Part shown: piece after piece, positions 18,857-46,892 of the stretch
How the letters are laid out: every line of letters starts with the position of its first letter
Numbering within the stretch: position 1 is the first letter of the stretch
Source: Deltaproteobacteria bacterium
GTDB lineage: Bacteria > Desulfobacterota > Binatia > HRBIN30 > CADEER01
Assembly: GCA_029262455.1 (NCBI GenBank)
Contig: JAJCZJ010000020.1
Coordinates: 325,078 to 389,077, forward strand
Direction of reading: 5' to 3'
Length of the DNA: 64,000 bases
Notes under the pieces: generated by a model
What the model saw: only the letters and a program-made list of their open reading frames with translations
The model's database searches: none
What the model was told of the DNA's origin: nothing
Made by a program: the position numbers and the translations under genes

Positions 18857-21008
18857 GAACCCCGACGCGAGTTCAGATGCCGTTCGGAACAACCGCCACG
18901 CAACCTTGCGATGGTGGTTGGTCGTCGGGCTCGGGATCGGGGGATTCCTCGCTGCGTTTATCGTCTTCCGCCTACTCGACCAGAGCCTTCCGCTCACCGG
19001 CCCGCCGGCGAACGGCGCCGACCTAAAGTCCTATTTCATTCCGGCGATGGCGTTCATGCGACAGGCCTTCTTCGACGGCGAGCTGCCCCTGTGGAACCCG
19101 TACCAACTCGCCGGGTCTCCGTTCATTGCGCTCCATGGACCAGGCGCGCTCTACCCGTTGCTCTTCATCTTCACTCCACTACCGCCCCACGTCGCGCTGA
19201 TCGCACACGCCCTGCTCCACTACGTTCTCGCTGGACTGTTCAGCGCGCTGTACGCGCGAAAGATCGGTCTACCAAGTGCCGCATGTCTCGTGGCTGGACT
19301 CGCGTACGTGGGCTCGCCGCCACTCGTCGACGCCGCATTCAACACGGGATACCTGTCGACCTTCGTCTGGCTTCCGGCGATCCTGCTGGCAGTCGAGAGC
19401 ATCTGCGACACGCCCGGGCGTCGGACGGCGGTTCTCCTAGCCGGAGTCCTGGCGCTCTGCTTTTTGGCCGGACACCCCCAGGCGTTCGTTTATTCCGTCT
19501 TCATCGCCGCACCCTACGGCGCCCTGCGCCTGTTGACCTCCCAACCTTCTGCAAAGTGGGTGTCGATTCTCGTCTGGAGTACGACAGCAGGCTTGCTGGC
19601 GGCTGGTCTGATGGCGATACAGATCCTACCGACCGCCAGCCACGCCAACACCGCCGCCAGAAACCTCGACGGTCTCAACTATCATCTCGCACGATGGTCG
19701 GCCCTGCGATGGCATCATCTACCTAGCCTTCTCACCGGCCAAGACGGCCCCCCGCTCGGTCTACCATTTCTCTTCGCGCCCCTAACCATCGCTGCGCTCT
19801 TCTCGCGCCAACGCGTACTCGCGCTGACTCTGCTGTCGATCTTTCTATTGTCCTTCGACTACATGACCGGCGTCAGCGCACTCGGGTCAAAACTCTACTA
19901 TGCCTTGCCTGCGGGGAATCTGTTTCGTCTCCCCCAACGAATGGCATTTGCGTACCACGCGCTTGCCGCTGCATTAATGGCGCTCGGCGTGAGCGCCGTA
20001 ATCTCCGGAGCCAAACGCTGGGGATCTACCCTCGCGATCATCGCGGCAATCACGATCCCGGCGATCCTCGCACTCGATCTCTTCGTCCGTAATCCACTTC
20101 GTTTTCGCTACGACCTCTGGCGCGCCCCCTGGTCGGTCCCCGGAGCCGCAGAAACCTCACCCCTATTGAACGCAGCCGGCTTCGACCGACTTTTCATCCA
20201 GAATCGGGCCAAAGTAACAATACCGCGAAAATTTGGAATGTTGCATCGAGCGTTCATCCTGCCGGACTACGATCCGTTGCTCCCCGGCATCTACCGCCCG
20301 TTCTTTCAGATCCCGCCGAAAGGGCTGTGGCACGGTACCCTCGACATTGTCGATCCGTGGCGCGGCAGACCGCTAAATTCTGTGCGCAAGCCGATTCTGC
20401 AACCCCCAACACGCCTCGATTTACTCAGCGTTCGCTACTACGTGGATGCTCGCCACGGAGCCGCTAGCGACCCGAAAAAACTAGGCCCGGCCTCCCAACT
20501 CGCGGACATCCACGTCGGGCAACACGCTGTCTACAAACGTGAGACGGCAGTGCCCCGCACGTACATCGTGAAGGACATCGTCGGTGTGAATTCGGAGGCA
20601 GATGCCTTGGCGAGAGTGCACGCCCTCGACTTCGACCCTGCTCGGACGGCCATTGTCGTCGGTCCCCCTGCACAATCCTCAGAAACTCCGGCGGCGAACG
20701 AAGGGGCGCGCATCACGTCTTTTCGCCGCAACGACGTTCGCATCGAAGCATCCTGCAATTCGGATTGCCTGCTCGTCCTGACCGACCTGTACGACCCCGA
20801 TTGGTCAGTTCAGGTCGACGGGCAACCTACAACGTTGCTGCGCACCAACTACTTGGTTCGTGGCGTCCGGCTCAACCCTGGAACCCACACCGTAGATTTC
20901 CACTATCGCGCCCCCGCCTTCTGGACCGGTGCTGCGATCACGCTTGCGGCGCTGCTGGTGTCAGGCTACCTCGCCCTGTCCGGAAGAGAACATAAGCGAG
21001 TCGGCTAG
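18846..21008 (+). CDS. YfhO-like polytopic membrane glycosyltransferase, paralog 2
   Basis: GTG start overlaps the upstream stop by 11 nt. Long blocks identical to paralog 1, for example a 34-nt identical DNA stretch at about 17209-17242 and about 19351-19384. Confidence 0.7.
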   Translation: MSPENPDASSDAVRNNRHATLRWWLVVGLGIGGFLAAFIVFRLLDQSLPLTGPPANGADLKSYFIPAMAFMRQAFFDGELPLWNPYQLAGSPFIALHGPGALYPLLFIFTPLPPHVALIAHALLHYVLAGLFSALYARKIGLPSAACLVAGLAYVGSPPLVDAAFNTGYLSTFVWLPAILLAVESICDTPGRRTAVLLAGVLALCFLAGHPQAFVYSVFIAAPYGALRLLTSQPSAKWVSILVWSTTAGLLAAGLMAIQILPTASHANTAARNLDGLNYHLARWSALRWHHLPSLLTGQDGPPLGLPFLFAPLTIAALFSRQRVLALTLLSIFLLSFDYMTGVSALGSKLYYALPAGNLFRLPQRMAFAYHALAAALMALGVSAVISGAKRWGSTLAIIAAITIPAILALDLFVRNPLRFRYDLWRAPWSVPGAAETSPLLNAAGFDRLFIQNRAKVTIPRKFGMLHRAFILPDYDPLLPGIYRPFFQIPPKGLWHGTLDIVDPWRGRPLNSVRKPILQPPTRLDLLSVRYYVDARHGAASDPKKLGPASQLADIHVGQHAVYKRETAVPRTYIVKDIVGVNSEADALARVHALDFDPARTAIVVGPPAQSSETPAANEGARITSFRRNDVRIEASCNSDCLLVLTDLYDPDWSVQVDGQPTTLLRTNYLVRGVRLNPGTHTVDFHYRAPAFWTGAAITLAALLVSGYLALSGREHKRVG

Positions 21009-21114
21009 GCGAAACGACCTTCCGCCGTCCAGCGCAGGATCGGCTCTTGCGAGCCGAACAATCGCCGAGGCCCCCGACGCACGTAACCCCTGGAAGCGTG
21101 AAATCATCCAGACT

Positions 21115-21939
21115 ATGTTATCTCGGATGAGCCAAGGAGCGACATTCCCAACTCCCCCCCTCTCTGTGGTAATACCGGCCTTCGAGGAGTCCAGTCGCAT
21201 CGGCCCTCCACTCGCAAAAATTTGCCAGTATATTGCACAGAACCACCCGGGCACTGAGATCATCATCGTCGACGACGGCAGTCGCGACAGTACCTCGGAA
21301 ACGGTTGAGAAGCTCGCCCCGGATCTGCCATGCCCGGTCACCCTGTTGCGCTATGAGAAAAATCGCGGCAAGGGCTACGCGCTGCGCGTAGGTTTCGCGC
21401 ACAGCAGCGGGCAGCGCGTCCTGTTTACCGATTGCGATCTTTCGACGCCGATCGAGGAACTCGATCGGCTTCTCCCCGCGATCGAGGATGGCGCCGATGT
21501 GGTGATCGGCTCGCGGAAGATGACCGGTGCCGACATCGTCGTTCATCAAAAATGGTACCGCGAGCGGCTCGGCAAAGTCTTTACGTTTCTCGTCAACATC
21601 GCAATCGCCAACGTCAGCGACGCAACGTGCGGTTTCAAGCTCTTCGACGGTGACGTTGGCCGGAAACTCTTCGCACTCGGTCAAATCGACGACTGGAGTT
21701 TCGACGCCGAAATCCTCTTCCTAGCCAGCCGACAGAACCATCGCATCGTCGAGATTCCCGTAACCTGGCGCGATGCCGAGGGCACAAAAGTCCGCCTTGG
21801 CCGCGACGCGCTCGCGGCCCTGACTGGGCTGATGCGCATTCGATGGCTGGCGCTGCGCGGCGTCTATCGGGAGGCTGCTTCTCCGAGCCTGGACTCCTCC
21901 GTCGAAGTCAAGATGCTGCCTGACCGGCTCATATCGTGA
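21115..21939 (+). CDS. GT2 polyprenol-phosphate glycosyltransferase (DPM1/GtrB/CsbB/ALG5-like)
   Basis: ORF 20929..21939 trimmed to ATG 21115. LSVVIPAFEE, IIIVDDGSRDST, NRGKGYAL, FTDCDLSTP, DAEILFLA. Confidence 0.8.
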   Translation: MLSRMSQGATFPTPPLSVVIPAFEESSRIGPPLAKICQYIAQNHPGTEIIIVDDGSRDSTSETVEKLAPDLPCPVTLLRYEKNRGKGYALRVGFAHSSGQRVLFTDCDLSTPIEELDRLLPAIEDGADVVIGSRKMTGADIVVHQKWYRERLGKVFTFLVNIAIANVSDATCGFKLFDGDVGRKLFALGQIDDWSFDAEILFLASRQNHRIVEIPVTWRDAEGTKVRLGRDALAALTGLMRIRWLALRGVYREAASPSLDSSVEVKMLPDRLIS

Positions 21940-24116
21940 GCACAGGTAGTTCCCCGCAACTCGTCAAGCAGACAAACGTCGATTCCTGGCAGTGGTGGAC
22001 ACTCGTAGGGCTGGGGCTCGGCGCCTTCCTCGCGGTATTCATAGCACTTCGGCTCACGGACCCCACATTGCCTCCAAGCGCGCCGCCGGCCCGCGGTTCC
22101 GACCTCAAGTCCTACTTCCTCCCCTCGATGGTGTTCATTCACCAATCACTGATGGATCTCGAGCTGCCACTCTGGAACCCGTTCCAGCTCGCCGGCTCTC
22201 CGTTCATCGCCAGCCATCACCCCGGCGCCCTCTATCCCCTGCTCGTCGTGTTCGCACCGCTACCTCCACATCTGGCGCTCGCCGCCCACGCACTCCTCCA
22301 CTACGCACTCGCCGGTATATTCACTGCCCTATACGCACGAAAAATCGGCGCCCAGGCCGGTGCTTGCCTCGCTGCCGGAGTTGCCTACATGGGTTGCGCA
22401 CCAATGGTGAACGCCGCCTTCAACACCGCCTATCTGTCGACCTTCATCTGGCTGCCGGCGATTCTGCTGGCCATCGAGCACATGTTTCAGAAACCCGGCC
22501 GCCGGGCAGCCGTGATATTGGCCGCCACACTTTCCCTCAGCTTTCTGGCCGCGCATGCGCAGGCATTCGTTTACTCGGTCGAAGTTGGCGCACTCTACGG
22601 AATCGCACGACTGGCCGCGTCGCAGCCAAGAGCGCAATGGCCACGCATCGCGGGTTGGAGTATCGCTGCCGGATTGATCGCCGCGGGGCTGGTCGCGATC
22701 CAGTTGCTTCCCGCAGTCGAACACGCATCCGCCGGCGGGCGCAATCTCGAAGGCGTCAACTACGGTATCGCTCGTTGGCCTGGTCTCTATTGGCAGCAGG
22801 TCCCTCGAATCCTCTCCGGACTCGACCATCGAGGCACAGGTGTCCCCTTCCTTTTCGTCCCCTTAGCCATCGCGGCAATTTTTTCCCGCTGGCGGACACT
22901 TGCCCTCACGTTCCTCGTAATCTTCTTTCTCTGCATCGATTTCATGGCCGGATCCACCGGATTCGGGTCAAAGTTGTACTACGCTCTTCCCGCCGGAAAT
23001 TTGTTTCGCTTTTCAACCCGAATGGGATTCGCATATCAGCTCGTCGCCGCTGTCATCATGGGCCTCGGCACCAGTGCGGTCATCACGCGATCACAACGAT
23101 GGGGCCCAAAAGCAGCAGGCGCCGTCGGCATCGCACTTCCTGCCCTCCTCGCTCTCGATCTCTTCTGGCGCAATCCCCTGCCCTACCGATTCGACCTGTG
23201 GAGCGACCCGTGGGACGTGAGCGCCGTCAACGCCACCGCCGATCTAGCGAAAACCACCGAATACGACAGACTCTTCATTCAGAATCACGCGTGGGTGACC
23301 GTTCCAACGAAAGTCGGGATGCTGCACAGTGCCTTCGTCGTCCCGGACTATGACCCGCTACTGCCGGGGGCTTACAAGCACATGTTCGGGTCTGGTTCGA
23401 AAGTTGTCTGGCAAGGGCGCCTCGATATGGTCGATCCATGGCCTGGCGAGAGAAAGAAAAACCACAAGCCCCCCGTCCTCCAACCACCCACGCGACTCGA
23501 TCTGCTCAGTGTTCGGTACTACGTCGACGCCCGCACAATCGCGAGGCTAGGTCCTACCAAGCTGGGATCCGTTTTAGACGCCAAACAGATCCGCGAGGGA
23601 CCACCGCCGGTCTACGAACGCACGACTGCGTTGCCGCGTACCTACATCGTCAAGAATGTGATTGCCGTCGCGTCCGAGGACGATGCTCTGAAGCACGTGC
23701 ACGAGCTCGCCTTCGACCCGACCGAAACGGCTATCGTCGTCGGGAACACCACCCTAGACACGCAGCCGCTGACTGCAGACGATCAGGCTCACATCACGTC
23801 GTTCCACCGCAACGACGTATCCATCGAAGCATCCTGCACTTCGGAATGTTTGCTCGTCCTAACCGATCTCTTCGATCCCGATTGGACTGTGCATGTAAAC
23901 GACCAGCCGCACGAAATATTGCGCACGAACTATCTGGTACGTGGCGTCCGCTTGGAAGCGGGTACCCATCGCGTCGATTTCCACTACCGCGCGCGAGAGT
24001 TCTGGAAAGGCGCAATCATCACTCTCGCAGCACTCCTGGTTTCGGCGTACCTGCTGGCAACGGGCGACCCGACTCTCCACCGCCCTGCGACCAACACCGC
24101 TCGCAGTACCGGCTGA
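21936..24116 (+). CDS. YfhO-like polytopic membrane glycosyltransferase, paralog 3
   Basis: GTGA start/stop overlap with the GT2 gene. Same conserved N- and C-terminal blocks as paralogs 1 and 2. Confidence 0.7.
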   Translation: MSTGSSPQLVKQTNVDSWQWWTLVGLGLGAFLAVFIALRLTDPTLPPSAPPARGSDLKSYFLPSMVFIHQSLMDLELPLWNPFQLAGSPFIASHHPGALYPLLVVFAPLPPHLALAAHALLHYALAGIFTALYARKIGAQAGACLAAGVAYMGCAPMVNAAFNTAYLSTFIWLPAILLAIEHMFQKPGRRAAVILAATLSLSFLAAHAQAFVYSVEVGALYGIARLAASQPRAQWPRIAGWSIAAGLIAAGLVAIQLLPAVEHASAGGRNLEGVNYGIARWPGLYWQQVPRILSGLDHRGTGVPFLFVPLAIAAIFSRWRTLALTFLVIFFLCIDFMAGSTGFGSKLYYALPAGNLFRFSTRMGFAYQLVAAVIMGLGTSAVITRSQRWGPKAAGAVGIALPALLALDLFWRNPLPYRFDLWSDPWDVSAVNATADLAKTTEYDRLFIQNHAWVTVPTKVGMLHSAFVVPDYDPLLPGAYKHMFGSGSKVVWQGRLDMVDPWPGERKKNHKPPVLQPPTRLDLLSVRYYVDARTIARLGPTKLGSVLDAKQIREGPPPVYERTTALPRTYIVKNVIAVASEDDALKHVHELAFDPTETAIVVGNTTLDTQPLTADDQAHITSFHRNDVSIEASCTSECLLVLTDLFDPDWTVHVNDQPHEILRTNYLVRGVRLEAGTHRVDFHYRAREFWKGAIITLAALLVSAYLLATGDPTLHRPATNTARSTG

Positions 24117-24157: not shown

Positions 24158-24916
24158 TCACAGGATCTCCCAGCCTTCACAATAGAGATCCTGCCAATTT
24201 CGAGGGCCTGCCGGTTTGAACCAAGTGCGTGGGGCGACAGTCGGCCCACCGCCAAGCCAAGCCGCCCACCAGCTATAGGTACTGTTCGCAATGACATGGG
24301 CGTGGCACAGCGCCATCGCGCACATGTCGACATGTGCGTCGTTCCCCGAGACGACGACCTGGCTGTCAAAGTGCCGACGACACCAGTCAGGGTCATCAGA
24401 GAAGACAATCGGGCTGTGACCTTCGAACCTTGCCAACGCTTGCCTGTACCACGACAAAGGCAGATTGGAGTGGATCCGGCTCTTATCCGTGTAATCGCCC
24501 CGACGCACGTGAACCGACACACGTGAAGTGCGAACGCCGGCAAGCACCTCCTCTGCCCGTTCCCGCACTTCGTCGGTGAATGTGAAGTTGCTTCGCACAA
24601 TCTCTTCGCAATGCGCGAAATACTTGGGACTCTGGTAGTAACCCAAGAGATCGAAGTCGCGCCGCTCGCTGAGGCCGAACACCTCCCGCGAGAACGAGAA
24701 GCGAGGCTCGCGAAAGCTTTCTACGGGCGGCGGGACAGATTCGTCGAGAACCGAACCGAGGATGAAACCCCGAGCAAGATCGGACGCCGAGATCGGCGCG
24801 CACGGATCGTGGCCGGTAATGATCGATGCACCCAAGACGGCAGCATATTGAAACATCTGGTTTCCCAAACGCCCCTGAATCCCAATAGAGTTATGTCCGA
24901 GTCTCGCCACGTTCAA
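24158..24916 (-). CDS. GT11 alpha-1,2-fucosyltransferase-like
   Basis: GRLGNQMFQYA, VSVHVRRGDY, IANSTYSWWAAWLG. Confidence 0.8.
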   Translation of the reverse strand: MNVARLGHNSIGIQGRLGNQMFQYAAVLGASIITGHDPCAPISASDLARGFILGSVLDESVPPPVESFREPRFSFSREVFGLSERRDFDLLGYYQSPKYFAHCEEIVRSNFTFTDEVRERAEEVLAGVRTSRVSVHVRRGDYTDKSRIHSNLPLSWYRQALARFEGHSPIVFSDDPDWCRRHFDSQVVVSGNDAHVDMCAMALCHAHVIANSTYSWWAAWLGGGPTVAPRTWFKPAGPRNWQDLYCEGWEIL

Positions 24917-24940: not shown

Positions 24941-27472
24941 TCAAAGTCCGATCACGTGCGTAATGGCGGGAATGGGCTTCGCCAAGGCCGGCAGGCGGAT
25001 CCCAATGTGGACCGTCGCCAACTCGCCTGTCGTTCCGGGAGCGAAACGCGGCTGCACCTCGACACACTTGCCGTTTCGAATCGGACGCGGCGCCGACGCC
25101 GGCTTCTTGCCGTCGAGGAGGAACTTGACGCCGGCCTCCAACATCGCCTGGCCGCACTTCTTCTTCGAACAACACACCGCAACAAATCCCAAGCGCATCT
25201 GCGGCATCGAGAACGTCAGCCAGCCTGCCTGCTGCGAAGCGCGTGTCACCAGCCCCGCGCACGCTGCGGGGTGCCGGCACTCGGGCATGCTGCGTTCGTT
25301 GTCGGGAATGTAGCGCCCGCCCTCCTCCGCCTTCCATCGTGTCCAACCCGCGTCCGAAGTTTGCGCAAGAGCCCGGTGCGGATTCTTCTCAGCCATCGCA
25401 TCGAGGCGCGCGAAGTGCTGTTCTCCAAACGTCGGCACTTCGTAGTTGGTACACCGCGGCGGTTCAGAAACCGCACACCACTCCGCCGGGCAAGCCAGCG
25501 GCTTGGGCAGGACCGAGGCCGACGGCTGACGGGGACGCTTCGGCCAGCGCACAGTCGGATAAGGCTCAGCAGAAACTCGACCCAACGCCAGGAGCAACGC
25601 GTCCGAAAGTTTGTACGCCAGCGCGTCGGCAGTCGTCTGAAACAGAAGCGGACCGGGATGCCAATTGCGGAACACGACGCCCAACGACTGGCGGCGCCGT
25701 TCAGACACGCCCGCTGCCTCCCCCTCCCGCGTCGTCTCGTGAAGCGTGTCACCAACCACACCCCACTCCTTGCCGGGGTAGCCAACGCTCTTGATGCCAC
25801 GCTCCATACAGAGCACATCCGCGCCAAACGGACCGTAGACATCAAGCAACACCTGGTCCTCGGCCGGCAGACGCGAGCAGTCATGCGTATAAAGAATCTG
25901 CGGCACCGGGCTGCGCTCCATCAGCAGCGACCAGCGATAGAATAGCTCGTGGTAGAGCTGGAGATCTTCCGCGGAGCTGCCGGCCTCGAAATAGGTCCAC
26001 GAGTAGTGCGTCATGTCGACGTCGTCGCCCACCAGCGTGCGCAAACACCAAACCTGGTTATCGAACGAGTCGCCGCAATCCCCACCCTGGCCGGTGTTCC
26101 GCACTTCAAACTCGACGCCGGCGGTATTCCAGACCGGAGCCATCAGGCGTTCGAGCTGGAGCTGGTAAGAATCGTAGTGACAGTTGTCGAAACCCGCGGT
26201 CACCGAGCTTCCGATCGTGCCGATGACGAAGCGGTCTCGCCAAACCAGGGCCCGCGCAAGCTTGTCAGCCAAGAAGTCGATTCCTTGCTGGTAGCGGCGG
26301 TCGTTTGGTTGCAAATACCAAGTCTTACGCAACACATCGGGACCACCGTAATAGTCCTCGAGCATCGAGCGCATCTTCTCCACCTCGGCCCGGATTACGG
26401 CATAGCGGGCGCCCTCTGCGTCGGAATCGCCGGCACCGCCTCCTTGTCGCAGCGAGAGTTTCTCGCGAACTGCCGGAACAGCGATCAGCTCCCGCCAAAA
26501 CGCACGCGCAAAGCGCTCGCCACTGTCGCGATTCAGGTGTGAGCCGTCGCTCGTTGCCAAGTCCGCGACGTCGGGCAAAACGACCGGAACCCCGAGAGCA
26601 TCGCCCAAATGAGGAAGATGGCCGGTCTGGGTTTGCGCGTAGGGAGTGAGAGTCACCACCATGAGAGCACCGCGCGATCTCAGTTCACTCTGGAGTTCTC
26701 GCGCTGCCGGCACCACTCGGTCGTAGTTCCGGTCCTCCCGAGTCCAGCCAACCGCATAACTCGCAGCCGGCTCAACTGCGGGTCGCCACCAACCAGTTCG
26801 CGAAGACCGATAGATGACCCATTGCGAAGCGATCTCATCGCCAAACCAATCCAGCTTCGGCACAATGGTGTGAAGCCAACGCTGCAAGCCCCACCGAGCC
26901 CGGGTCTCGATCCATAGCTTGTGGGCCTGCCACCAAGTCAACTGCATCGCCGCGACCGCACGATCCGACACTCGATCGCCGAAGAAGTGCGGCCCGCCGG
27001 CGACGACCACCACCTTCGGTCGCAGATCATGTCGACGGATCAGCTCCAGGGCAAAACCCAGCCCTTCCGAGTGCCCCATGCCGAGAGAAAAGACTCTTGA
27101 CCCCATCACCTCAGCGGCAGGCACTATACCGTCCTCACGCAGACCGAGCGGCATGCGCGAATTACCGATGAAGAGAACATCGGCCCGGCGCGCGTTTGAA
27201 ACCGAGTCTCCGATGTCGTGAAACAGCGCGACATGACTCAGTTCATCACCAACCGAATACGTGAAGAACGCGTCGTCCCCCGGCACCTCGAACGACGGCA
27301 TCCACTGCATCCGGGCCTGGCGCCCATCGGGCAAGGACAACTTCGGTAAGAGCAATGCCGTCAGCACAAAAGAAGAAAGAAAAAGAAGAACCGCGGATGA
27401 ACGCTGATCAACGCTGATGCGCCGCGGGAAGCCACGGCTGACATCGGACGATCTGCGTTCACCTGCGTTCAT
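24941..27472 (-). CDS. Membrane-anchored protein with two SGNH/GDSL-like domains and a Cys-rich C-terminal domain; probable partner of the adjacent MBOAT
   Basis: ORF 24941..27571 trimmed to ATG 27472 to avoid a 74-nt overlap. TM SSAVLLFLSSFVLTALLLP. Domain 1 has FIGNSR ... DGSHLN, domain 2 has IGTIGSSVTAGFDN ... GQGG. Tail is rich in Cys. Confidence 0.65.
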   Translation of the reverse strand: MNAGERRSSDVSRGFPRRISVDQRSSAVLLFLSSFVLTALLLPKLSLPDGRQARMQWMPSFEVPGDDAFFTYSVGDELSHVALFHDIGDSVSNARRADVLFIGNSRMPLGLREDGIVPAAEVMGSRVFSLGMGHSEGLGFALELIRRHDLRPKVVVVAGGPHFFGDRVSDRAVAAMQLTWWQAHKLWIETRARWGLQRWLHTIVPKLDWFGDEIASQWVIYRSSRTGWWRPAVEPAASYAVGWTREDRNYDRVVPAARELQSELRSRGALMVVTLTPYAQTQTGHLPHLGDALGVPVVLPDVADLATSDGSHLNRDSGERFARAFWRELIAVPAVREKLSLRQGGGAGDSDAEGARYAVIRAEVEKMRSMLEDYYGGPDVLRKTWYLQPNDRRYQQGIDFLADKLARALVWRDRFVIGTIGSSVTAGFDNCHYDSYQLQLERLMAPVWNTAGVEFEVRNTGQGGDCGDSFDNQVWCLRTLVGDDVDMTHYSWTYFEAGSSAEDLQLYHELFYRWSLLMERSPVPQILYTHDCSRLPAEDQVLLDVYGPFGADVLCMERGIKSVGYPGKEWGVVGDTLHETTREGEAAGVSERRRQSLGVVFRNWHPGPLLFQTTADALAYKLSDALLLALGRVSAEPYPTVRWPKRPRQPSASVLPKPLACPAEWCAVSEPPRCTNYEVPTFGEQHFARLDAMAEKNPHRALAQTSDAGWTRWKAEEGGRYIPDNERSMPECRHPAACAGLVTRASQQAGWLTFSMPQMRLGFVAVCCSKKKCGQAMLEAGVKFLLDGKKPASAPRPIRNGKCVEVQPRFAPGTTGELATVHIGIRLPALAKPIPAITHVIGL

Positions 27473-27497
27473 CTGCGGTTCAAATCCCTTGCTCGGC

Positions 27498-28907
27498 TCA
27501 AAACTGGAAGTAAATGAACTGCTGTTCCGTCGTGTACAGCGCAAGGACCGCCGCCAACATGGCACCGGCATAGATCGGCATCTCGAAGCGCTTCATTCCG
27601 AGTCCCGAGCTCCGGATCATTGCGGACCGCAAGTGAAGCGCCACGACCGGAGCGACGAAATACCAACCGAGTACTGTCAGATCGTCTAGGGAGCCAAGCC
27701 CACCACCAACCAACGAGACGATCCCCGCCACTGCATTGCCGACAACTCGCGTGCTCTGCGATAGATCCTCGGCGCGGAACAGGCCCATGCTCAGGATCCA
27801 CGTCACTTGCACGACGAGATACCAGCCCATCGAGGCCAGACGTCCCTGAGGTCCGCGCGAGAAACCCAAGGTCCGCTCGATCGCGAGCGCCAGCCCGTGC
27901 AACGCCCCCCACATCACGAAGGTCCAACTCGCACCATGCCAAAGTCCAGCGATCACCATGACCGCTGTGACGTTCACCAACGTGCGAGCTCGTCCGTGCC
28001 GGTTCCCCCCCAACGGGATGTACAGGTAGTCGCGGAACCAACGCGAGAGCGTGATGTGCCAACGACGCCAGAAATCGCTGAAGGTTGCCGCGATGTAGGG
28101 AGCGTCAAAATTGATCGGCAAGCGAAAGCCAAGCTGATAGGCAAGCCCGCGCGCAATGTCGGTATATCCCGCGAAGTCACAGAACAGCTGGCAGGAGAAA
28201 AAGGCGAGCATCGAGAGAGCCAGCAATCCGCCACCGGTTTCCGACGCGGCGCTCTCCCAATGCGTATCGACGACGCGTCCGAGGTTGTCAGCGACGACGA
28301 CCTTGAGAAACAGGCCGCGAACGATCAGGTAGGCGCCTTCGAAGAAGACTCTACCTCTGAAACCACGGTCGCGTTCCAACTGATAGAGAAAATCCCGCGC
28401 TCGAACGATCGGGCCCGCGACGAGCTGCGGAAAGAAGGCGATATAGCAGGCGAGTCGGACAAAGCTTTTCTCAGCCGGGATGTCGCCGCGGTAAACGTCG
28501 ATCGTGTAGCTCATCGACTGAAACGTATAGAACGAGATCCCAATCGGGAGGACAATCTCCGGATCCACAAACTGCCAAAGGCCCGAGGTCGCAATGTTCT
28601 GCGCCACAAAGCCACCGTACTTGAAGTAGCCGAGCAGCCCCAGATTGAGCAGCAGAGAAAGCGAAAGAATGCCCTTGCGCCGTGCCGTAGCCGACCCTGG
28701 CGCAGCGGCAATCACGCGGGCAGCGAAATAGTCGACACACGTGCTGAAGAGAATGAGGGCGAAGTACTTGGGGACGTGCCAGGAATAAAACGCCCAGCTC
28801 AGCAACAAGAGCCCGAAGACGTACGATCGGTTCGATCGGCGCGTCGCACCGCGCAGCGCCAACGCCAAAAAGAACAGGAACAAGAAAGAGACAGAAAGAA
28901 AGCTCAC
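27498..28907 (-). CDS. MBOAT family O-acyltransferase (AlgI/DltB/PatA-like)
   Basis: 469 aa polytopic protein. FWRRWHITLSRWFRDYLYIPLGGNR with the conserved His. Confidence 0.85.
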   Translation of the reverse strand: MSFLSVSFLFLFFLALALRGATRRSNRSYVFGLLLLSWAFYSWHVPKYFALILFSTCVDYFAARVIAAAPGSATARRKGILSLSLLLNLGLLGYFKYGGFVAQNIATSGLWQFVDPEIVLPIGISFYTFQSMSYTIDVYRGDIPAEKSFVRLACYIAFFPQLVAGPIVRARDFLYQLERDRGFRGRVFFEGAYLIVRGLFLKVVVADNLGRVVDTHWESAASETGGGLLALSMLAFFSCQLFCDFAGYTDIARGLAYQLGFRLPINFDAPYIAATFSDFWRRWHITLSRWFRDYLYIPLGGNRHGRARTLVNVTAVMVIAGLWHGASWTFVMWGALHGLALAIERTLGFSRGPQGRLASMGWYLVVQVTWILSMGLFRAEDLSQSTRVVGNAVAGIVSLVGGGLGSLDDLTVLGWYFVAPVVALHLRSAMIRSSGLGMKRFEMPIYAGAMLAAVLALYTTEQQFIYFQF

Positions 28908-29405: not shown

Positions 29406-30590
29406 ATGCCGAAAGAAGAGATCGAGGTCGAGGTTCGGGTTCGGCTGCGCGGAGGGCATTCCTACGATCTCACCCTATCATCCAACTCCGCTCTTCTGCG
29501 CGACTTGATCACGACGCTCGGCGGGTCGAGAAACTCGGTCCAGCCCCGACTCTTCCAGCTACCCCTCGACGGCGGCCAAACCTCCGCAACATTCGCCAGC
29601 GATCAGATATCAGCGATCGACACCCGTCCGCCACTCGACTGGAACACCATCACAACTGGTACGGAAGAGCGGTCCGCAAAAAGCCTCGGCGATGGTCCGC
29701 CTCTCGTCCTACGCGGCGCCCGCAACATTACACGCCAGCCATCCTACGAGGCAGCAGAGCGACGAGCGCGGCGGCTGATGGAACCGTTCGTGGCGCATCG
29801 ACAAGCCCGCCGTGCCGCACTGAAGAGCACTTGCGACGAGCTCGGCGGAAACACCTTCGTCGTCTCCCCCTTCAACCAAGGCTTCGTCCCGCTACTGCGC
29901 AACTGGGCCGCATCCTGTGATCGTTCCGGCATCGACTGCCGCGCCAGGACGGTACTGTTTCCGACCGACAACGGCGCCGACACTGCAGCACGCGAGCTCG
30001 GATTCGCAACCCTCTTCGACGGCGTCTCGTTTGACGGTGCCCCGCGCGACGCTATCAAAGTCTACGGGGACGCCCACTTTGCCGATTGTGTCTTCGCCAA
30101 GCTCGGCGCAGCAATCGACATGCTCGCTCTCGGCTACGACATCCTACTCCAGGATATGGATCTCGTCTGGTTCAAAGACCCGCTCCCCGGACTCAAAACT
30201 CGAGCGATGGCCGACGATCTGGACTTACAGTTCATGCGCGACATGAATCCGCGCTTCCAGCCGCTGTACTACAACTCCGGCTTCGTATTTATGCGCAACA
30301 ACGAATTCACCCGCCAAACCTGGAACACCATCTTCGACGCCTTTGCGGCGGTCGTGTTCTACCGCTCCGATCAAACCGTCGTGAACCAGGTCGTCGACTG
30401 CTACAAAGAGCGAGGATTGCGAGCCGCCCGTCTTCCAGATCGCTACGTAGATGGACAACTGCTGATCCGGGCCCAAACAAAACGCCGGCCTCTACCGCCA
30501 GATTCGATCGTGGCTCACGTCAACTGGACCGGAAACCTTGCCGAGAAGATCGCTCGGCTCAAAGCACTCGAACTGTGGTTCATCGACTGA
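29406..30590 (+). CDS. Unassigned N-terminal ~75-aa domain fused to a GT77/PF03407-like nucleotide-diphospho-sugar transferase
   Basis: ORF 29367..30590, ATG 29406. ILLQDMDLVWFKDPLPGL (DxD) and PLYYNSGFVFMRN are typical of Nucleotid_trans/GT77. N-terminus is described in the findings. Confidence 0.65.
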   Translation: MPKEEIEVEVRVRLRGGHSYDLTLSSNSALLRDLITTLGGSRNSVQPRLFQLPLDGGQTSATFASDQISAIDTRPPLDWNTITTGTEERSAKSLGDGPPLVLRGARNITRQPSYEAAERRARRLMEPFVAHRQARRAALKSTCDELGGNTFVVSPFNQGFVPLLRNWAASCDRSGIDCRARTVLFPTDNGADTAARELGFATLFDGVSFDGAPRDAIKVYGDAHFADCVFAKLGAAIDMLALGYDILLQDMDLVWFKDPLPGLKTRAMADDLDLQFMRDMNPRFQPLYYNSGFVFMRNNEFTRQTWNTIFDAFAAVVFYRSDQTVVNQVVDCYKERGLRAARLPDRYVDGQLLIRAQTKRRPLPPDSIVAHVNWTGNLAEKIARLKALELWFID

Positions 30591-30673
30591 TCGATGCAAA
30601 TCACTTGCCGTGTCACAAGTTTTCCCCTTTTAAGCTTGACAGGAAGTCAGCGAACGTCGAGACTGCCTCCCGG

Positions 30674-31942
30674 ATGCCGACATTTGTTGGCGACACCTTA
30701 CCGGAGGCGCTTCGAGCCTTGGACTGCTCAAAATCCATCGAAACTCGTGTCCTGCCGCGCGCAGTGGCCTTCGGTCGCTTGCTTCTCGCTATCGCGGCGG
30801 CACTTGCCGTGGTGACAGCTCCGCATAGGGCGCCGGCAGCCCAGATCAAGTTCACGGGATTTGCCCAAATCAACGGCGCCCCGAGCGGACCGTTCGCAGC
30901 ATTCACAATGAATGAGGTCGTCGATATGACGATCACGATCGACGAGACTACGGCCGATTCGAATGGCGCCGGCGGCGCCGGATCATACAGCGATCCGACC
31001 TCGACCGCATTGTTCGAGGGACAGACCTCCGTGCAGATGGTCACTTTCACCGGCTTCGGCTTCGAACTCCTCGATTCGACGCGACTCGACCCGGCCAACG
31101 GCCTCGTCTCATCGAGCCCGAGCGCGGCGTACGTCGAGGACTGGGACCTGACCAACCTGTCGCCGATTTCGAACGTCGACGACCTTCCGACCATCATTGC
31201 CGAGTTGCCCAATGTGAACATTGGAACCGTCAGCGCCAACTTTTCGATACAACAACTGCCCGCCGGCCCGACCACGCTCTTCCTCGGGCTCAAGCCAACC
31301 GTCACGGTCACCGACTTTTGCGGCAACGGCATCGTCGAGGCCCCGGAAGCGTGTGACGATCCGGTGTGTTGCAACCCGACCTGCACCGCAATCATAGCGA
31401 ACGGAACTGAATGCCGCGCTTCAGCCGGCGTCTGTGATGTGGCCGAGACCTGCAGCAACGGCGCATGCCCCGTCGACGGCTTCGCCTCGATCGGCACCGT
31501 GTGCAACCCGTCATTGGGCGTCTGTGATCCAGAGGAAGTGTGCAGCGGCTCGAGCGCGGAATGCCCGCCGGACACGCTGACTCAGTTCACCTGTGGCACG
31601 ATCTGCGGCGCCCCGGTAGACGAGTGCGACGTTGCCGACATCTGCGTCTCCGGCAACGTCGATTGCCCACCGATGGGGACAATGTGCACACCGACACCGG
31701 TTCCGACTCCGACGCCCACGCCCGTTCCCGAAAATGGGTCCGGGGACGGGGCTTGCAGCGACGGTCTCGACAACGACAACGACAACCTCATCGACTGCGA
31801 CGACCCTGATTGCCTCGACGTCGAGGCATGCGAAACCGTGCACGCACCGACGCTCTCGCCAGGTGGATTGACGATCACCGTGCTCATCCTCGCCCTCATC
31901 GGCTTGTTGGCGATGGGGCGGGCAGTGCTCCGGAAGAACTGA
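30674..31942 (+). CDS. Secreted Cys-rich protein with disintegrin-like motifs, a PT linker, a DxDxD motif and an IPTL-CTERM-like tail
   Basis: Inner part of ORF 30086..31942. Start is ATG 30674 or GTG 30764 (MAFGRLLLAIAAALAVVTA signal). CGNGIVEAPEACDD, three copies of C-x5-CD-x2-E-x-C-x(4,5)-CP-x-D, TPTPVPTPTPTPVP, DGLDNDNDNLIDCDDPDC, APTLSPGGLTITVLILALIGLLAMGRAVLRKN. Confidence 0.7.
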   Translation: MPTFVGDTLPEALRALDCSKSIETRVLPRAVAFGRLLLAIAAALAVVTAPHRAPAAQIKFTGFAQINGAPSGPFAAFTMNEVVDMTITIDETTADSNGAGGAGSYSDPTSTALFEGQTSVQMVTFTGFGFELLDSTRLDPANGLVSSSPSAAYVEDWDLTNLSPISNVDDLPTIIAELPNVNIGTVSANFSIQQLPAGPTTLFLGLKPTVTVTDFCGNGIVEAPEACDDPVCCNPTCTAIIANGTECRASAGVCDVAETCSNGACPVDGFASIGTVCNPSLGVCDPEEVCSGSSAECPPDTLTQFTCGTICGAPVDECDVADICVSGNVDCPPMGTMCTPTPVPTPTPTPVPENGSGDGACSDGLDNDNDNLIDCDDPDCLDVEACETVHAPTLSPGGLTITVLILALIGLLAMGRAVLRKN

Positions 31943-31962
31943 CGGCCGAGGTGCCTGATCAA

Positions 31963-32469
31963 ATGAGCGACTCCAAAAAGACAAGAAAGCAGCTAATCGA
32001 AGAACTCGAACAACTTCGTGGTCAAGTCGCGCAGCGACAGCAGTCGCAGTCGGACAACAGTGCACCGGCGCTTGCCGGCGACGTTTCACGACGCACCGCG
32101 CTAAAGGTCGCCTGGACCGCGCCGGTCATTTTGGCAATCCCTCTCCAGGCCGATCGCTCTGGCGCCCAACCTCCGGTCGGAACGGTGGCCCCGGGCTGTC
32201 CCACCATGACCCCGACCAACGCGGCCCCTCCGACTAGCTCGCCGACCTTGTTCCCAACGACCGCTGAGCCGACGATTTCGCCGACTCAACCAGTCCCGAC
32301 CACCAGGTTGCCAACGTCCAGTCCCACGAACGACCCGACATTGCGTCCGACCACCAGCCCGACGATCCCTGCCCCGACGGCTATGCCGACGGCGAGGCCG
32401 ACCACCAGCCCGACGATCCCTGCTCCGACGCTTTCCCCGACCCCTGGTTTCCCGACGCTTTCCCCGTAA
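31963..32469 (+). CDS. Pro/Thr-rich small protein with a conserved N-terminal helix and an SRRTALK Tat-like motif; candidate substrate/precursor 1
   Basis: Inner part of ORF 31810..32469, ATG 31963 lies 20 nt after the upstream stop. MSDSKKTRKQLIEELEQLRGQV...DVSRRTALKVAWTAPVILAIPL, then about 90 aa with about 26 Pro, mostly as P-T. Paralog of 45413..45892. Confidence 0.7.
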   Translation: MSDSKKTRKQLIEELEQLRGQVAQRQQSQSDNSAPALAGDVSRRTALKVAWTAPVILAIPLQADRSGAQPPVGTVAPGCPTMTPTNAAPPTSSPTLFPTTAEPTISPTQPVPTTRLPTSSPTNDPTLRPTTSPTIPAPTAMPTARPTTSPTIPAPTLSPTPGFPTLSP

Positions 32470-32611: not shown

Positions 32612-33976
32612 ATGTCGTCAGGAAACAGCGTAGAAACGCCGCCTACCAACTCTGGAGACTCCCCACGAGCACGGGGTGCGGCGGCTCGGCGGGTACGTCC
32701 GCGGCAGCGGGGCGGGCTCGAGACTTTCGAAGTACACAACGAAATCGTCGTGCTTCCCGGCGAGGGGGACCGCGTTTACGCGCTGAACGAGTCCGGTAAG
32801 GAGATCTTCGGCCTCTGCGACGGTCGCCACACCCTAGAGGCAATGGTCGACCAACTGGCGTCGAGGTACGACGCGCCTGACGTCGCGATCATGGGCGACG
32901 TGTCCGCAGCGATATTCGACCTCCACGGCCTCGGGCTGGTCGATATTCCTCCACCGGCTGACGCAGCTGCATCGATCGAGCCGCAGACCTCGGTCAAGGC
33001 ACGACCCAACGTGCGTTTCGTCTTCGGCATAGAGGACGTGCCCTATTTCCACTGGCAGCTTGCCATCCTCTTCGAGTCGCTCGTCGGCCAATTGCCCGAC
33101 GGTTGGGACGTCACCGTCGTCGTTTGCAACGACGAAGCACCGATTTCCGACGAGCTCATGAAGATCGTTTCCGAGTACGGTGTTCGCATCATGACCGGCA
33201 CCAGTCTCGCCGATCGCCACAGTCTCGACTTCGCCGGCGGCGGTGATCGCTACGTTCCGATGAACCGAGTCGAAGCACTCAGCGTCATTCGGCAAATCGT
33301 CGAACCCGAAGACGTCGTTTGCCTTCTGGACACCGACGTCTTCCTGTACGGCAACCTTCAAGAACAACTCTTCCCGACCGGCAACGCAATGGCCCGCAAC
33401 TGGATCATCTCCGAAGATCGGTACTTCGCGTTCTCGACCAACAACGAACGAGGACTGTCGCTCCCGAAGCTGCTCGAAGCCCTGGGGTGCGAGCAGGAGT
33501 TCAAACCCGGTGGCGTAGCGGTCTTCTTGACGGGAGAGACGATCCAACGCGAGCGCGTCATCCCCGACATTTTCCGTTTCCTTCAGGTTCTGTTCCTGCT
33601 CGGGAAAATCGTCGACGCACCAGCGCACGGCGTTTGGGTCGCCGAAATGGCATGCTTCGCAATGGCCATGTACCCCAACGAAATCGACTACGAGCTTCTC
33701 GACATCCCGCAATTCGCCGTCCAGGAGCAGCATGCTGAAGTCGCCCCCGACGGTTCGTTCTTCCACTACTACACCGACATCAACGACGGCGGGGGATCAA
33801 ATGGTCCGTTTTTCGAATCGCAGTGGCATAAACAGTTATTTCACCAGTCCAACATGCTCCTCGAAGACTTCGACAGCTTCAGAGTGAACGCCAAAGGCCG
33901 CCTCGAGCAGCGCTTCTTCGAAATCGCCGACAAGGCGAGAAAGCGCCTTTACGGCATCGAACGCACGGGCAAGTAG
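32612..33976 (+). CDS. PqqD-like domain fused to a GT95/GT96-like (HPAT / peptidyl-Ser galactosyltransferase-like) glycosyltransferase
   Basis: PqqD-like VYALNESGKEIFGLCDGRHTLEAMVDQLASRYD...AIFDLHGLGLV. GT part: FVFGIEDVPYFHWQLAILFESL, VVCLLDTDVFLYG, VWVAEMACFAMAMY. Confidence 0.6.
   Translation: MSSGNSVETPPTNSGDSPRARGAAARRVRPRQRGGLETFEVHNEIVVLPGEGDRVYALNESGKEIFGLCDGRHTLEAMVDQLASRYDAPDVAIMGDVSAAIFDLHGLGLVDIPPPADAAASIEPQTSVKARPNVRFVFGIEDVPYFHWQLAILFESLVGQLPDGWDVTVVVCNDEAPISDELMKIVSEYGVRIMTGTSLADRHSLDFAGGGDRYVPMNRVEALSVIRQIVEPEDVVCLLDTDVFLYGNLQEQLFPTGNAMARNWIISEDRYFAFSTNNERGLSLPKLLEALGCEQEFKPGGVAVFLTGETIQRERVIPDIFRFLQVLFLLGKIVDAPAHGVWVAEMACFAMAMYPNEIDYELLDIPQFAVQEQHAEVAPDGSFFHYYTDINDGGGSNGPFFESQWHKQLFHQSNMLLEDFDSFRVNAKGRLEQRFFEIADKARKRLYGIERTGK
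32717..32947 (+). other. PqqD-like (RRE-type) domain, copy 1, N-terminal
   Basis: aa 36-112 of ORF 32612; pattern L.LN..g..IW.LCDG..T..EI...L matches PF05402 by eye. Confidence 0.6.
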
Positions 33977-34640: not shown

Positions 34641-36644
34641 GTGAGACATCTACTCTATACAAACTACCAGTCCGGTCAGTCGGGTTTGAGCAACGGCATC
34701 ATGTCGATCGAGCTGGGCGTGGTCCTCGCGTTCCTGACGAATCGGTTTCTCCTGCTCGATGGCAACATCTCCCCGCCGGCCAATATCGTGTCGTACGGCG
34801 ATCGAGTCGACAACAGCCAGCCGAGCCGCGTCACCGACCTGATCGACCTACCGGTCGCCTGGAGTGAGCCAGGAAGCGTCGACGTGTCCAAGTTGCCGTT
34901 CCTCGAATTGAGCGACGACCATCTGGGGAGTGCCGCGTTCTATGTCCCCGGCACCGTCGACATCCGATCCGCCGACGCGGAAGCGTTCGCCAACGGCAGG
35001 ACAGTGTGGCTCAACGCTGGCGGCTCGCTCGACGAGATCCCGGTGCTGCGAGTGTCCGAGGATCACAGCAAAGACAATCTTCGATACAATCTCAACTACT
35101 ACTCGTACTTCTTCTACCTCGACGACGAAACGCGTCGCTCCGTCTACCGCATGCTCGAGCGGATGCAACCAAAGCAGGACCTAGGGGAGCTGGCGAAGCG
35201 CGTCGCCGGCGATCTCGGAGCATTCAACGCGGTGCACTTGCGACGCGGTGACTTCAAGGTGACCTATGGAGTCACCACCCTCGACCGTCAACCTTGGGAA
35301 GCAATCGAGGCGCTCGAGCATCACTTCAAACGCGACGACACTCTGGTCTTCGTGACCGACGAGCGCGACGACCCGTTCTTCGACGAGATCAAGAAGGTCT
35401 ATACGCATCACGTATTCATCGATCACCACATCCTCGACGACTACGAGAAGGACTTCGCCGCATTGCAGCACCGCGACAGCATCGCCTTGGCCTATCTTTC
35501 CCAGCTCGTGGCGGCCGAATCCGCCGACTTCATTGGCACCATGACCAGCACGTTCACCGCCATCATCCAGCGCTACCGCGGCAATCGCGGCAAGGCCGAG
35601 AGTTTCAAGTACCTTTGGAACGAGCTCCCGGACGACGGCGATCGTCTCGAACGCGGCCGTCATCCGGTTAGTGAGTGCGTCCCGATGGACCGCGGCATGA
35701 TGGTCGAAGAGTCGTCGGGTCCGTACTCATGGAATCGCTACAACAAGAGGATCGCCGCCAACTGGATGCGCGAATGGCCCGAAAGTTTTCTGACCCAAGA
35801 GAGCCTCGAAACCGGCAAATTGACGACCGGGGCCAGCCCCGTTGCCCGCCCCATCGTTCTGGTTCGTCCCGAAAGGACGAAAGTCGAGGTCGCGTTCGAC
35901 GGCTTGAGCATCATTCTAAACTCGCAAGTGCCTCGCGTTGCGACCAAGCTGAGCGAAGCCTTCGAATCACGCCAAGCTGCGAGTCCAGCGAACGTCATCG
36001 GGGAGTTCGAGGTTGCTGAAGAAGACGGCGACTTCCGTCTTCTGCAACGCGGCCAGGAAATCGCCACCGCAGCAAGCTACGAGGAGTTGGCGCGCACGTT
36101 AAAACTCCGCATGGTGCCGATCTTTGTCGGTGCGCGCCGCCGGCACGTGTGGCTGGAAGCTTTTTCCTTCCGTAGAGCAGGCCATGCGCTGGTTCTCGCC
36201 GGCGACATGGGTCCTCCATCGGACTGGCTGCCGGACGCCATGTGCTCGAACGGCTGGGAGCTGCTGTGGGACGAGATCGTCCCGATCCGCCTGGAAGACT
36301 GTACCGTCACACCGTTCGGCCGCACGACCTGGCCGAAGGGCGCAGCCCTGCGCATCGACCGTACGCCCTGTCGCGTCAGCGGCCTGATCGTCACCAGCCG
36401 ACAAGTCCAGCGCCGCGACACCTTGACCGTCTTGTCCCCAGCCACCGGGGTGGCGGAGTTGATCGGCCGCTGCGTCGACTTCCGCACCGACCGCAAGCGG
36501 GCGGTAGAACGCCTGTGCAAGCTGGTCGAGAAACGAACCGTAGGCAGACTGTCCTTCAGCCGCGCCGAGACCGCTGTCGATCTCCTCACGCGCCCCTTCC
36601 TCGACGCGGAGCGTGAGTCCGCCCACGGTACAAAGTCTGCATGA
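34641..36644 (+). CDS. O-fucosyltransferase-like (PF10250-type) GT domain fused to an HprK-related-kinase-like domain with a degenerate P-loop
   Basis: GLSNGIMSIELGVVLAFLTNRFLLL, FNAVHLRRGDF, ADFIGTMTSTFTAIIQRYRG. C-terminal half: VEVAFDGLSIILNS...HVWLEAFSFRRAGHALVLAGDMGPPSDWLPDAMCSNGWELLWDEIVPI. Confidence 0.55.
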   Translation: MRHLLYTNYQSGQSGLSNGIMSIELGVVLAFLTNRFLLLDGNISPPANIVSYGDRVDNSQPSRVTDLIDLPVAWSEPGSVDVSKLPFLELSDDHLGSAAFYVPGTVDIRSADAEAFANGRTVWLNAGGSLDEIPVLRVSEDHSKDNLRYNLNYYSYFFYLDDETRRSVYRMLERMQPKQDLGELAKRVAGDLGAFNAVHLRRGDFKVTYGVTTLDRQPWEAIEALEHHFKRDDTLVFVTDERDDPFFDEIKKVYTHHVFIDHHILDDYEKDFAALQHRDSIALAYLSQLVAAESADFIGTMTSTFTAIIQRYRGNRGKAESFKYLWNELPDDGDRLERGRHPVSECVPMDRGMMVEESSGPYSWNRYNKRIAANWMREWPESFLTQESLETGKLTTGASPVARPIVLVRPERTKVEVAFDGLSIILNSQVPRVATKLSEAFESRQAASPANVIGEFEVAEEDGDFRLLQRGQEIATAASYEELARTLKLRMVPIFVGARRRHVWLEAFSFRRAGHALVLAGDMGPPSDWLPDAMCSNGWELLWDEIVPIRLEDCTVTPFGRTTWPKGAALRIDRTPCRVSGLIVTSRQVQRRDTLTVLSPATGVAELIGRCVDFRTDRKRAVERLCKLVEKRTVGRLSFSRAETAVDLLTRPFLDAERESAHGTKSA

Positions 36645-46744: not shown

Positions 46745-46759
46745 GGGGATTCTATGTGT

Positions 46760-46878
46760 GTGATTGGTGACTGGTGATTCGTGACTGGTGACTGGTGATT
46801 CGTGACTGGTGACTGGTGATTCGTGACTGGTGACTGGTGATTCGTGACTGGTGACTGGTGACTGGTGACTGGTGATTG
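46760..46878. repeat. 17 tandem heptamers GTGAYTS, with a 21-bp super-repeat GTGACTGGTGACTGGTGATTC
   Basis: Counted by hand from the sequence: 119 bp = 17 x 7, lying between the GT60-like stop (46893) and the sulfotransferase ATG (46744). Confidence 0.9.
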
Positions 46879-46892
46879 GTTGGGCAAAAGTT

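Follow-up and report, generated by a model that had tools for sequence, protein, structure and literature searches.

A putative MBOAT-SGNH O-acyltransferase with two unrelated SGNH modules joined in one chain within a bacterial glycosylation cluster

The window analyzed here is a stretch of 64,000 nucleotides from a Deltaproteobacteria bacterium (contig JAJCZJ010000020.1), and this study concerns an MBOAT membrane acyltransferase gene and the gene for an 843-residue protein that follows it. Three closely spaced genes were found on the minus strand in the order MBOAT, 843-residue fused gene and GT11-family glycosyltransferase. The fused gene encodes, from the N-terminus, a transmembrane (TM) anchor, a first SGNH module (the N-module), a linker, a second SGNH module and a beta-sandwich tail, the last two together forming the C-module. 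The features are given below in window positions.

27498..28907, minus strand: MBOAT gene, 469 residues, membrane acyltransferase moving an acyl group across the membrane (Pfam MBOAT)
27936..27938, minus strand: His324 in Trp323-His324-Gly325, at the position of the invariant catalytic MBOAT His (seen directly in the sequence)
27501..27518, minus strand: FIYFQF, MBOAT residues 464-469, an FxYxxF acyl-shuttle motif at the exact C-terminus
24941..27472, minus strand: fused gene, 843 residues plus stop (open reading frame and junction)
27338..27394, minus strand: single TM helix, residues 27-45 (hydropathy 2.12 over 19 residues)
26450..27310, minus strand: N-module, residues 55-341, putative direct MBOAT partner (SGNH fold, canonical block order)
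27158..27160, minus strand: Ser105 in G-N-S-R, predicted N-module nucleophile (Gly103 and Ser105 invariant in 41 relatives)
26537..26548, minus strand: Asp309-Gly-Ser-His312, block V DxxH of the N-module (Asp309 and His312 invariant in 41 relatives)
26393..26449, minus strand: Gly/Asp/Ala-rich linker, residues 342-360, the fusion joint (poorly conserved among full-length relatives)
25553..26392, minus strand: catalytic part of the C-module, residues 361-640, a leading helix and then the second SGNH fold
26204..26212, minus strand: Gly421-Ser422-Ser423, block I, with Ser423 as predicted nucleophile (conservation and model)
25739..25750, minus strand: Asp575-x-x-His578, first candidate acid/base motif (conservation)
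25649..25666, minus strand: Asn603-Trp-His605-Pro-Gly-Pro, with the second candidate catalytic His (conservation)
24944..25552, minus strand: Cys-rich beta-sandwich tail, residues 641-843, accessory domain resembling a carbohydrate-binding module (CBM) (model and fold match)
24158..24916, minus strand: GT11-family glycosyltransferase, 252 residues, third gene of the operon-like unit (Pfam Glyco_transf_11, E = 2.3e-28)

The MBOAT stop codon TGA (27498-27500) is followed by a 25-nt spacer containing an AAGGGA Shine-Dalgarno-like element and then by the ATG of the fused gene at 27472, while the GT11 gene lies 24 nt downstream of the fused gene on the same strand. Two other starts have been proposed. 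The mechanical open reading frame begins at an upstream ATG overlapping the MBOAT gene and spans 876 residues, and the public gene call (P0001) begins at Met55 of the 843-residue protein and spans 789 residues. The 843-residue start is supported because the N-terminal hydrophobic segment is conserved in relatives (P0003, P0002, P0004, P0007 and P0008) as well as in stand-alone N-modules. This segment (residues 27-45) forms the only strong TM helix of the protein, with six Lys/Arg residues before it and two after it, and is predicted to be a type II anchor that leaves the N-terminus inside and the catalytic domains outside the cytoplasm. The initial annotation, made from the letters of the sequence, had likewise described an MBOAT at 27498-28907 with a protein of about 843 residues and a single TM anchor 25 nt downstream. 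A promoter and terminator scan of the locus gave nothing above chance.

The 843-residue protein matched no Pfam or NCBIfam model and no sequence in the Protein Data Bank (PDB), so the SGNH assignment made in the initial annotation was at that stage a motif-level guess. A phmmer search and three profile searches against solved structures gave nothing significant, and among the fused protein and its relatives only a sub-threshold DUF4434, a weak DUF1574 and a faint NonGDSL match were obtained from Pfam and NCBIfam. A word-indexed search of 5.8 billion proteins returned 34 relatives, none of them carrying a Pfam domain, which fall into three classes: eight full-length proteins with 60-67% identity, many proteins of about 500 residues covering only residues 350-843, and longer proteins sharing the C-terminal part only, some of them eukaryotic (Bigelowiella, Norrisiella, Thalassiosira). 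The two halves of the protein were modelled separately.

The model of the N-terminal half (predicted local distance difference test, pLDDT, 74; predicted template modelling score, pTM, 0.77) has an SGNH fold. In an alignment of 41 N-module relatives reaching down to 27% identity, the motifs stand in canonical order, block I GxS before block V DxxH. The family is at best an outlying relative of DUF1574 (PF07611), an SGNH-clan family without known function or structure (PMC9487903); this model does not match the window protein and gives weak matches in 12 of the 41 relatives (best E = 2.8e-4).

The C-terminal half was modelled with high confidence (pLDDT 92, pTM 0.92). The Gly-Ser-Ser motif comes after the first beta-strand, the spacing of Asp575-x-x-His578 after the fifth strand of the model would fit a canonical block V, and His605 immediately precedes the last long helix of the SGNH domain. 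Conservation was counted in 95 C-module sequences down to about 35% identity: Gly421 is present in 95, Ser422 in 93 and Ser423 in 94 of them, Asn459 in 93 and Gly464 in 95, Asp575 in 91, His578 in 94 and Arg582 in 95, and His605 of the Asn-Trp-His-Pro-Gly-Pro motif in 92. Exceptions were observed in a few members. His605 is lost together with Ser423, Asp468, Asn472 and Trp604 in the degenerate member P0055, which keeps Asp575 and His578; P0012 carries His578Tyr; and four otherwise intact bacterial members have Asn or His in place of Asp575. The Asn of the canonical SGNH block III is apparently replaced by a Trp-Thr-Tyr-Phe-Glu segment. In Pfam the C-module gave nothing even at E = 10, save a faint NonGDSL match in two of 19 members, and a fold search against viral structures returned only distant phage tail-fibre SGNH domains with template modelling scores of at most 0.31.

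About eleven strands were predicted with high confidence in the tail. The fold match to RiCE17 (PDB 6hfz), which consists of an SGNH domain and a CBM35 domain, aligns 294 residues and single-domain SGNH matches align 160-197; together, the model and this match suggest that the tail is a beta-sandwich packed on the second SGNH domain as CBM35 is in RiCE17. Nine Cys residues occur in residues 641-843, in line with the Cys-rich segment of about 200 residues noticed initially, five occur in the second SGNH domain and none in the N-module. Eight of the 14 C-module Cys residues are at least 96% conserved, five of these being in the tail, and such a content fits a disulfide-bonded secreted domain.

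Each half of the protein has an SGNH fold and conserved candidates for the catalytic Ser, His and Asp, as judged from the models, motifs and alignments. The initial description of a double SGNH protein therefore stands as far as the presence of two such domains is concerned. A tandem duplication was rejected: the halves are unrelated in sequence, with hhalign giving E = 0.48 after the module alignments had been trimmed to module columns.

The fused gene is instead a fusion of two modules that are encoded separately in gammaproteobacterial glycosylation clusters. In the contig L005, an MBOAT with 59% identity to that of the window is directly followed by a 325-residue N-module protein, which aligns with residues 20-341 of the fused protein (44% identity, E = 7e-99), and a stand-alone C-module of 521 residues is encoded 1.3 kb beyond it. 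L089 and a Halieaceae contig show the same split arrangement, and the clusters of L005 and L089 each carry the MBOAT, the N-module (325-326 residues) and the C-module (505-521 residues) as separate genes. The linker agrees with such a joint, the stand-alone N-module ending there and the stand-alone C-modules beginning to align at residues 341-361.

When 1.84 billion cluster representatives (clustered at 50% identity) were searched exhaustively with HMMER, 1,237 of them proved related to one module or the other, 260 at E <=1e-30. Only one, P0005, spans both modules, which corresponds to a single fused cluster at 50% identity, and since any fused protein should have reached the list by its score, the fusion is genuinely rare. 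The fused form was found in only two species genomes in the genome scan, one of them labelled Candidatus Binatia, and the literature searched holds no mention of a tandem-SGNH protein of this kind. The logic of an MBOAT acting with SGNH proteins is already known, and the single-chain tandem form is a rare variant of it. Both modules are sizeable families, and because the domain databases miss them many MBOAT partner genes are labelled hypothetical.

A total of 80 metagenome loci with N-module relatives, obtained by a scan with a 14-sequence alignment, were scored for an MBOAT and a C-module. The MBOAT was found directly upstream in all seven informative loci with at least 40% identity, directly adjacent in all eleven informative loci with 30-39% identity (eight upstream, three downstream), and directly upstream in 11 of the 24 informative loci below 30%. 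Among all 51 loci of this last band, five more (L049, L054, L065, L072 and L082) have an MBOAT about 2.3-2.5 kb downstream, implying a distant soil-type subgroup with another conserved order and one gene in between. Every fused relative with available context has an MBOAT immediately upstream, and in four other contigs, where the cluster is unfused, a C-module gene is clustered with the MBOAT/N-module pair. The gene pair is thus co-conserved, the two genes adjoining in all 18 informative loci in which the N-module relative has at least 30% identity. A lack of catalytic triads, folds other than SGNH and a pair that is not co-conserved had been named at the outset as grounds for abandoning the assignment; none of the three was found. 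The genes flanking unfused pairs (proteins of 104-140 residues, a tetratricopeptide repeat protein and a Peptidase_C25) have no counterpart in the window. In one contig with an unfused cluster (L006, 2154-2789) an MBOAT match (query residues 116-266) runs directly into an N-module match (query residues 280-342), which looks like misassembly or a deletion that destroyed the two genes; an intact C-module follows downstream (3377-4927).

The MBOAT itself was identified by Pfam (E = 1.6e-28) and shares 59-67% identity with the MBOATs that precede all the relatives, whether fused or unfused. Its two conserved elements correspond to those of the Campylobacter jejuni enzyme PatA, the type case, with PatB, of bacterial MBOAT-SGNH pairs. 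PatA uses the invariant catalytic MBOAT His (His315) to acetylate itself on the invariant Tyr of its C-terminal FxYxxF motif, and PatB receives the acetyl group on its own Ser and hands it to the polymer, a mechanism that the authors propose for all MBOAT-SGNH pairs (PMC12148441). By analogy, Tyr466 of FIYFQF is the predicted acyl-Tyr carrier, and an F[IL]YF[QH]F ending is shared by all 36 MBOATs that adjoin N-module relatives. With a Tyr motif at its own C-terminus, the MBOAT has no need of a DltX-like microprotein. Assignment to the Dlt system was rejected: the MBOAT scores 155 bits with the NCBIfam DltB model, which has a cut-off of 375 bits, the partner has no DltD family match in Pfam or NCBIfam, and the scanned genes of the cluster include neither a carrier protein nor a ligase.

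The resemblance to PatA/PatB extends to the partner, which is encoded next to the MBOAT and is an extracytoplasmic SGNH protein tethered to the membrane, its Ser, Asp and His standing in canonical block order. Unlike in that system, the N-module has no sequence-level similarity to PatB or any PDB chain, a second SGNH domain and a beta-sandwich are added, and the context is a glycan or glycoprotein cluster rather than peptidoglycan metabolism. One MBOAT serving two SGNH-type modules is an arrangement shared with the alginate system AlgI/AlgJ/AlgX, in which TM-tethered AlgJ binds no polymer and AlgX, an SGNH protein with a C-terminal CBM, is the terminal transferase acting after AlgJ (PMC4148444); the N-module is like AlgJ and the C-module like AlgX, except that the window joins both in one chain and lacks alginate genes. 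AlgJ and AlgX are paralogues of each other with a circular permutation (H-S-G-N order) and a DxH motif (PMC9487903). Membership of the AlgX family was rejected, as Ser105 precedes Asp309-x-x-His312 in the canonical order and the two modules are mutually unrelated. Pfam ALGX matched neither the window protein nor the N-module relatives, the best PDB profile match of the N-module was a non-significant one to AlgJ (E = 0.15), and no AlgF-like gene was identified in the window.

The C-module shares its two-domain fold with RiCE17, a CE17 acetyl-mannan esterase with SGNH and CBM35 domains (PMC9487903). The two are only 14% identical in the structural alignment and have no sequence or profile match, and RiCE17 is a soluble degradative esterase of a gut bacterium whereas the C-module, rich in conserved Cys, is either tethered to the membrane or joined to acyl-transfer machinery. 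The sequence family GDSL-2/CE17 did not accommodate it, there being no Pfam family match and no PDB sequence or profile match. CASD1 and OatA physically link an acyl-translocating domain in the membrane with an SGNH transferase domain outside the cytoplasm. Such a coupling was also found for the C-module in P0044, a protein of 1021 residues from an ENA metagenome in which a Cas1-type multi-TM O-acetyltransferase domain (PF07779, E = 5e-22) is fused upstream of it; this fusion occurs on two contigs, P0182 being a member of identical length. In the window, by contrast, the membrane component is an MBOAT encoded by a separate gene, and the SGNH modules are of other families than their counterparts in CASD1 and OatA. 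The Cas1p-type domain of P0044 has about seven TM segments and Gly/Ser-rich low-complexity inserts, and the protein is probably eukaryotic.

The reading that best fits these observations, to which we give a probability of about 70%, is a PatA/PatB-type MBOAT-SGNH O-acyltransferase, most likely an O-acetyltransferase, in which two unrelated SGNH modules are fused as the periplasmic partner. The MBOAT would take an acyl group from cytoplasmic acyl-CoA and load it onto Tyr466 of FIYFQF by means of His324. The membrane-tethered N-module would then accept it on Ser105, using His312 and Asp309, and the C-module, with a second active site (Ser423) placed against a glycan-binding, CBM-like beta-sandwich, would pass it to the acceptor glycan. 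The C-module could be loaded from the N-module, as in the relay from AlgJ to AlgX, or directly from the shuttle peptide of the MBOAT. The acceptor would be the product of the surrounding cluster with its fucosyl-, N-acetylglucosamine (GlcNAc)-, sulfo- and methyltransferases, and may be either a polysaccharide or a glycoprotein or glycopeptide. The O-acylation of an exported glycan or glycoprotein proposed in the initial annotation is hence supported by His324, the FIYFQF ending, the SGNH folds and the gene linkage.

Three independent couplings tie the C-module to acyl transfer, namely the fusion in the window, the shared cluster and the Cas1 fusion. With the last of these and the fusion to an MBOAT partner, the C-module has been linked twice, independently, to membrane domains that translocate acyl groups, and the Cas1-type fusion favours a transferase over an esterase role.

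Several points weigh against the preferred reading. The C-module is absent from 23 of 23 unfused loci with at least 3 kb of downstream sequence; the MBOAT/N-module pair is therefore a general unit and the C-module an add-on of one conserved cluster type, and as the pair works without a C-module elsewhere, the relay step is not obligatory. The closest structural neighbours of the C-module are the esterases RiCE17 and Ape1. An Ape1-type esterase is encoded beside PatA/PatB in known clusters, so linkage alone is no proof of transferase chemistry. In addition, the N-module model is moderately confident (pLDDT 74), both His578 and His605 are candidates for the C-module base after the conservation and co-loss analysis, and the acyl group could be other than acetyl.

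It is possible, if on balance doubtful, that the two SGNH domains act in parallel, each being loaded independently by the Tyr shuttle of the MBOAT and serving a different position, sugar or polymer with no transfer between them. The Cas1 fusion is a case of the C-module being served by a membrane acyltransferase without an N-module, most C-modules, the eukaryotic ones included, have their own single N-terminal anchor and no N-module, and the N-module works alone elsewhere; the many glycosyltransferases in the cluster also make several acceptor sugars likely. In the case that has been studied, AlgJ and AlgX act successively and only the CBM-bearing protein touches the polymer (PMC4148444). The present data fit serial and parallel use alike, and parallel use is a sub-variant of the preferred MBOAT-SGNH acyltransferase rather than a true alternative to it. 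MBOAT-SGNH systems decorate bacterial surface polymers, and their need for two SGNH-type proteins, as with AlgJ and AlgX, is a standing question; the natural single-chain form is a fixed 1:1 construct in which Ser105Ala and Ser423Ala could separate serial from parallel transfer.

A division into writer and eraser appears unlikely. Here the MBOAT and N-module would form a complete O-acetyltransferase and the C-module would be an Ape1- or RiCE17-like O-acetyl esterase, kept by the fusion, that trims or edits the pattern. The lack of a C-module beside MBOAT/N-module pairs in most loci agrees with this division, and peptidoglycan O-acetylation clusters are known to encode such an esterase (PMC6174289). 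On the other hand, the C-module stands directly behind a Cas1-type domain in P0044, an arrangement typical of the transferases OatA and CASD1, and permanent tethering of an eraser to a writer would lead to a futile cycle. The fold similarity to esterases does not decide the matter, as SGNH esterases and transferases are inseparable by this measure (PMC12148441; PMC9487903). A non-catalytic C-module that binds glycan and presents the polymer to the N-module as a scaffold would agree with the CBM-like tail and the replaced block III Asn but is highly improbable, given that Gly-Ser-Ser, Asn459, Gly464, Asp575, His578, Arg582 and His605 are nearly invariant across the 95 sequences and that their joint loss in P0055 only is the pattern of a rare pseudo-enzyme inside an active family.

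Beyond the acyltransferase reading, we put forward tentatively a wider proposal. The C-module, which was also found in Bigelowiella, Norrisiella, Thalassiosira and MMETSP transcripts, may represent an unrecognised family of glycan O-acetyltransferases, composed of an SGNH domain and a disulfide-rich beta-sandwich, that is common to bacteria and the protist and algal secretory pathway and can be served by either of two mutually unrelated acetyl translocators of the membrane, an MBOAT or a Cas1/RWA-type domain. The window protein might then be a covalent two-step acetyl relay in a eukaryote-type cluster building an acetylated, sulfated and fucosylated O-glycan on a secreted Pro/Thr-rich protein or a PqqD-recognised peptide. 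The occurrence of the C-module in protists together with the Cas1-type fusion points to a possible new class of eukaryotic glycan O-acetyltransferase.

The three genes lie within a glycosylation cluster of about 32 kb (16733-49114, roughly 16.7-49.1 kb of the window) made up largely of eukaryote-type enzyme families, for which the MBOAT/fused-gene pair serves as a flag. The other members are as follows.

16733-18856, 18846-21008 and 21936-24116: three YfhO-family paralogues
20929-21939: family 2 glycosyltransferase (GT2) gene among the YfhO paralogues
30086-31942, plus strand: Cys-rich secreted protein reading frame (disintegrin-like match, E = 1.2e-7, below the Pfam cut-off)
31810-32469, plus strand: Pro/Thr/Ser-rich reading frame overlapping the Cys-rich one
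32612-33976 and 40149-41942: two PqqD-domain proteins
34641-36644: O-FucT-like protein
36641-37630: 2-oxoglutarate (2OG)-Fe(II) oxygenase
38552-40156 and 46893-47900 (the latter on the minus strand): two PF11397 GlcNAc-transferases
41978-45385 and 46049-46900 (the latter on the minus strand): sulfotransferases and methyltransferases
in the cluster: PF03407 nucleotide-sugar transferase
in the cluster: epimerase or dehydratase

This gene set recurs in the gammaproteobacterial contigs L005, L089, L006 and L004, and no description of such a bacterial cluster was found by literature search. Synteny with the unfused cluster of L005 extends over 37.8-45.4 kb. The PqqD protein of L005 matches 37803-38918 and the L005 GlcNAc-transferase matches 39266-40147 (75% identity), and the mechanical reading frame 38552-40156 (534 residues) probably merges or mis-starts two genes. 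One of the two sulfotransferase-domain proteins is joined to methyltransferase and GT92 domains. The combination of an oxygenase with PF11397 recalls the eukaryotic hydroxyproline glycosylation of Skp1. Systems of the CsbB/YfhO type, with a GT2 and a YfhO, glycosylate polymers outside the cytoplasm, and the GT2 and YfhO set of the window resembles them with YfhO triplicated.

The products of 30086-31942 and 31810-32469 are candidate glycosylation substrates. The former reading frame contains the (Thr-Pro)n linker TPTPVPTPTPTPVP and a C-terminal hydrophobic segment, and as it runs into the PF03407 gene, it probably starts at an internal position. Near the fused gene in L001, another protein gave a faint Disintegrin match.

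Finally, a C-module protein of 628 residues (P0025) was found on an 18.6-kb ENA contig among portal-like, dUTPase, YqaJ-type exonuclease and heliorhodopsin genes. No close relative of it was found among the viral structures searched, and its gene context suggests a large virus of a eukaryotic microbe.

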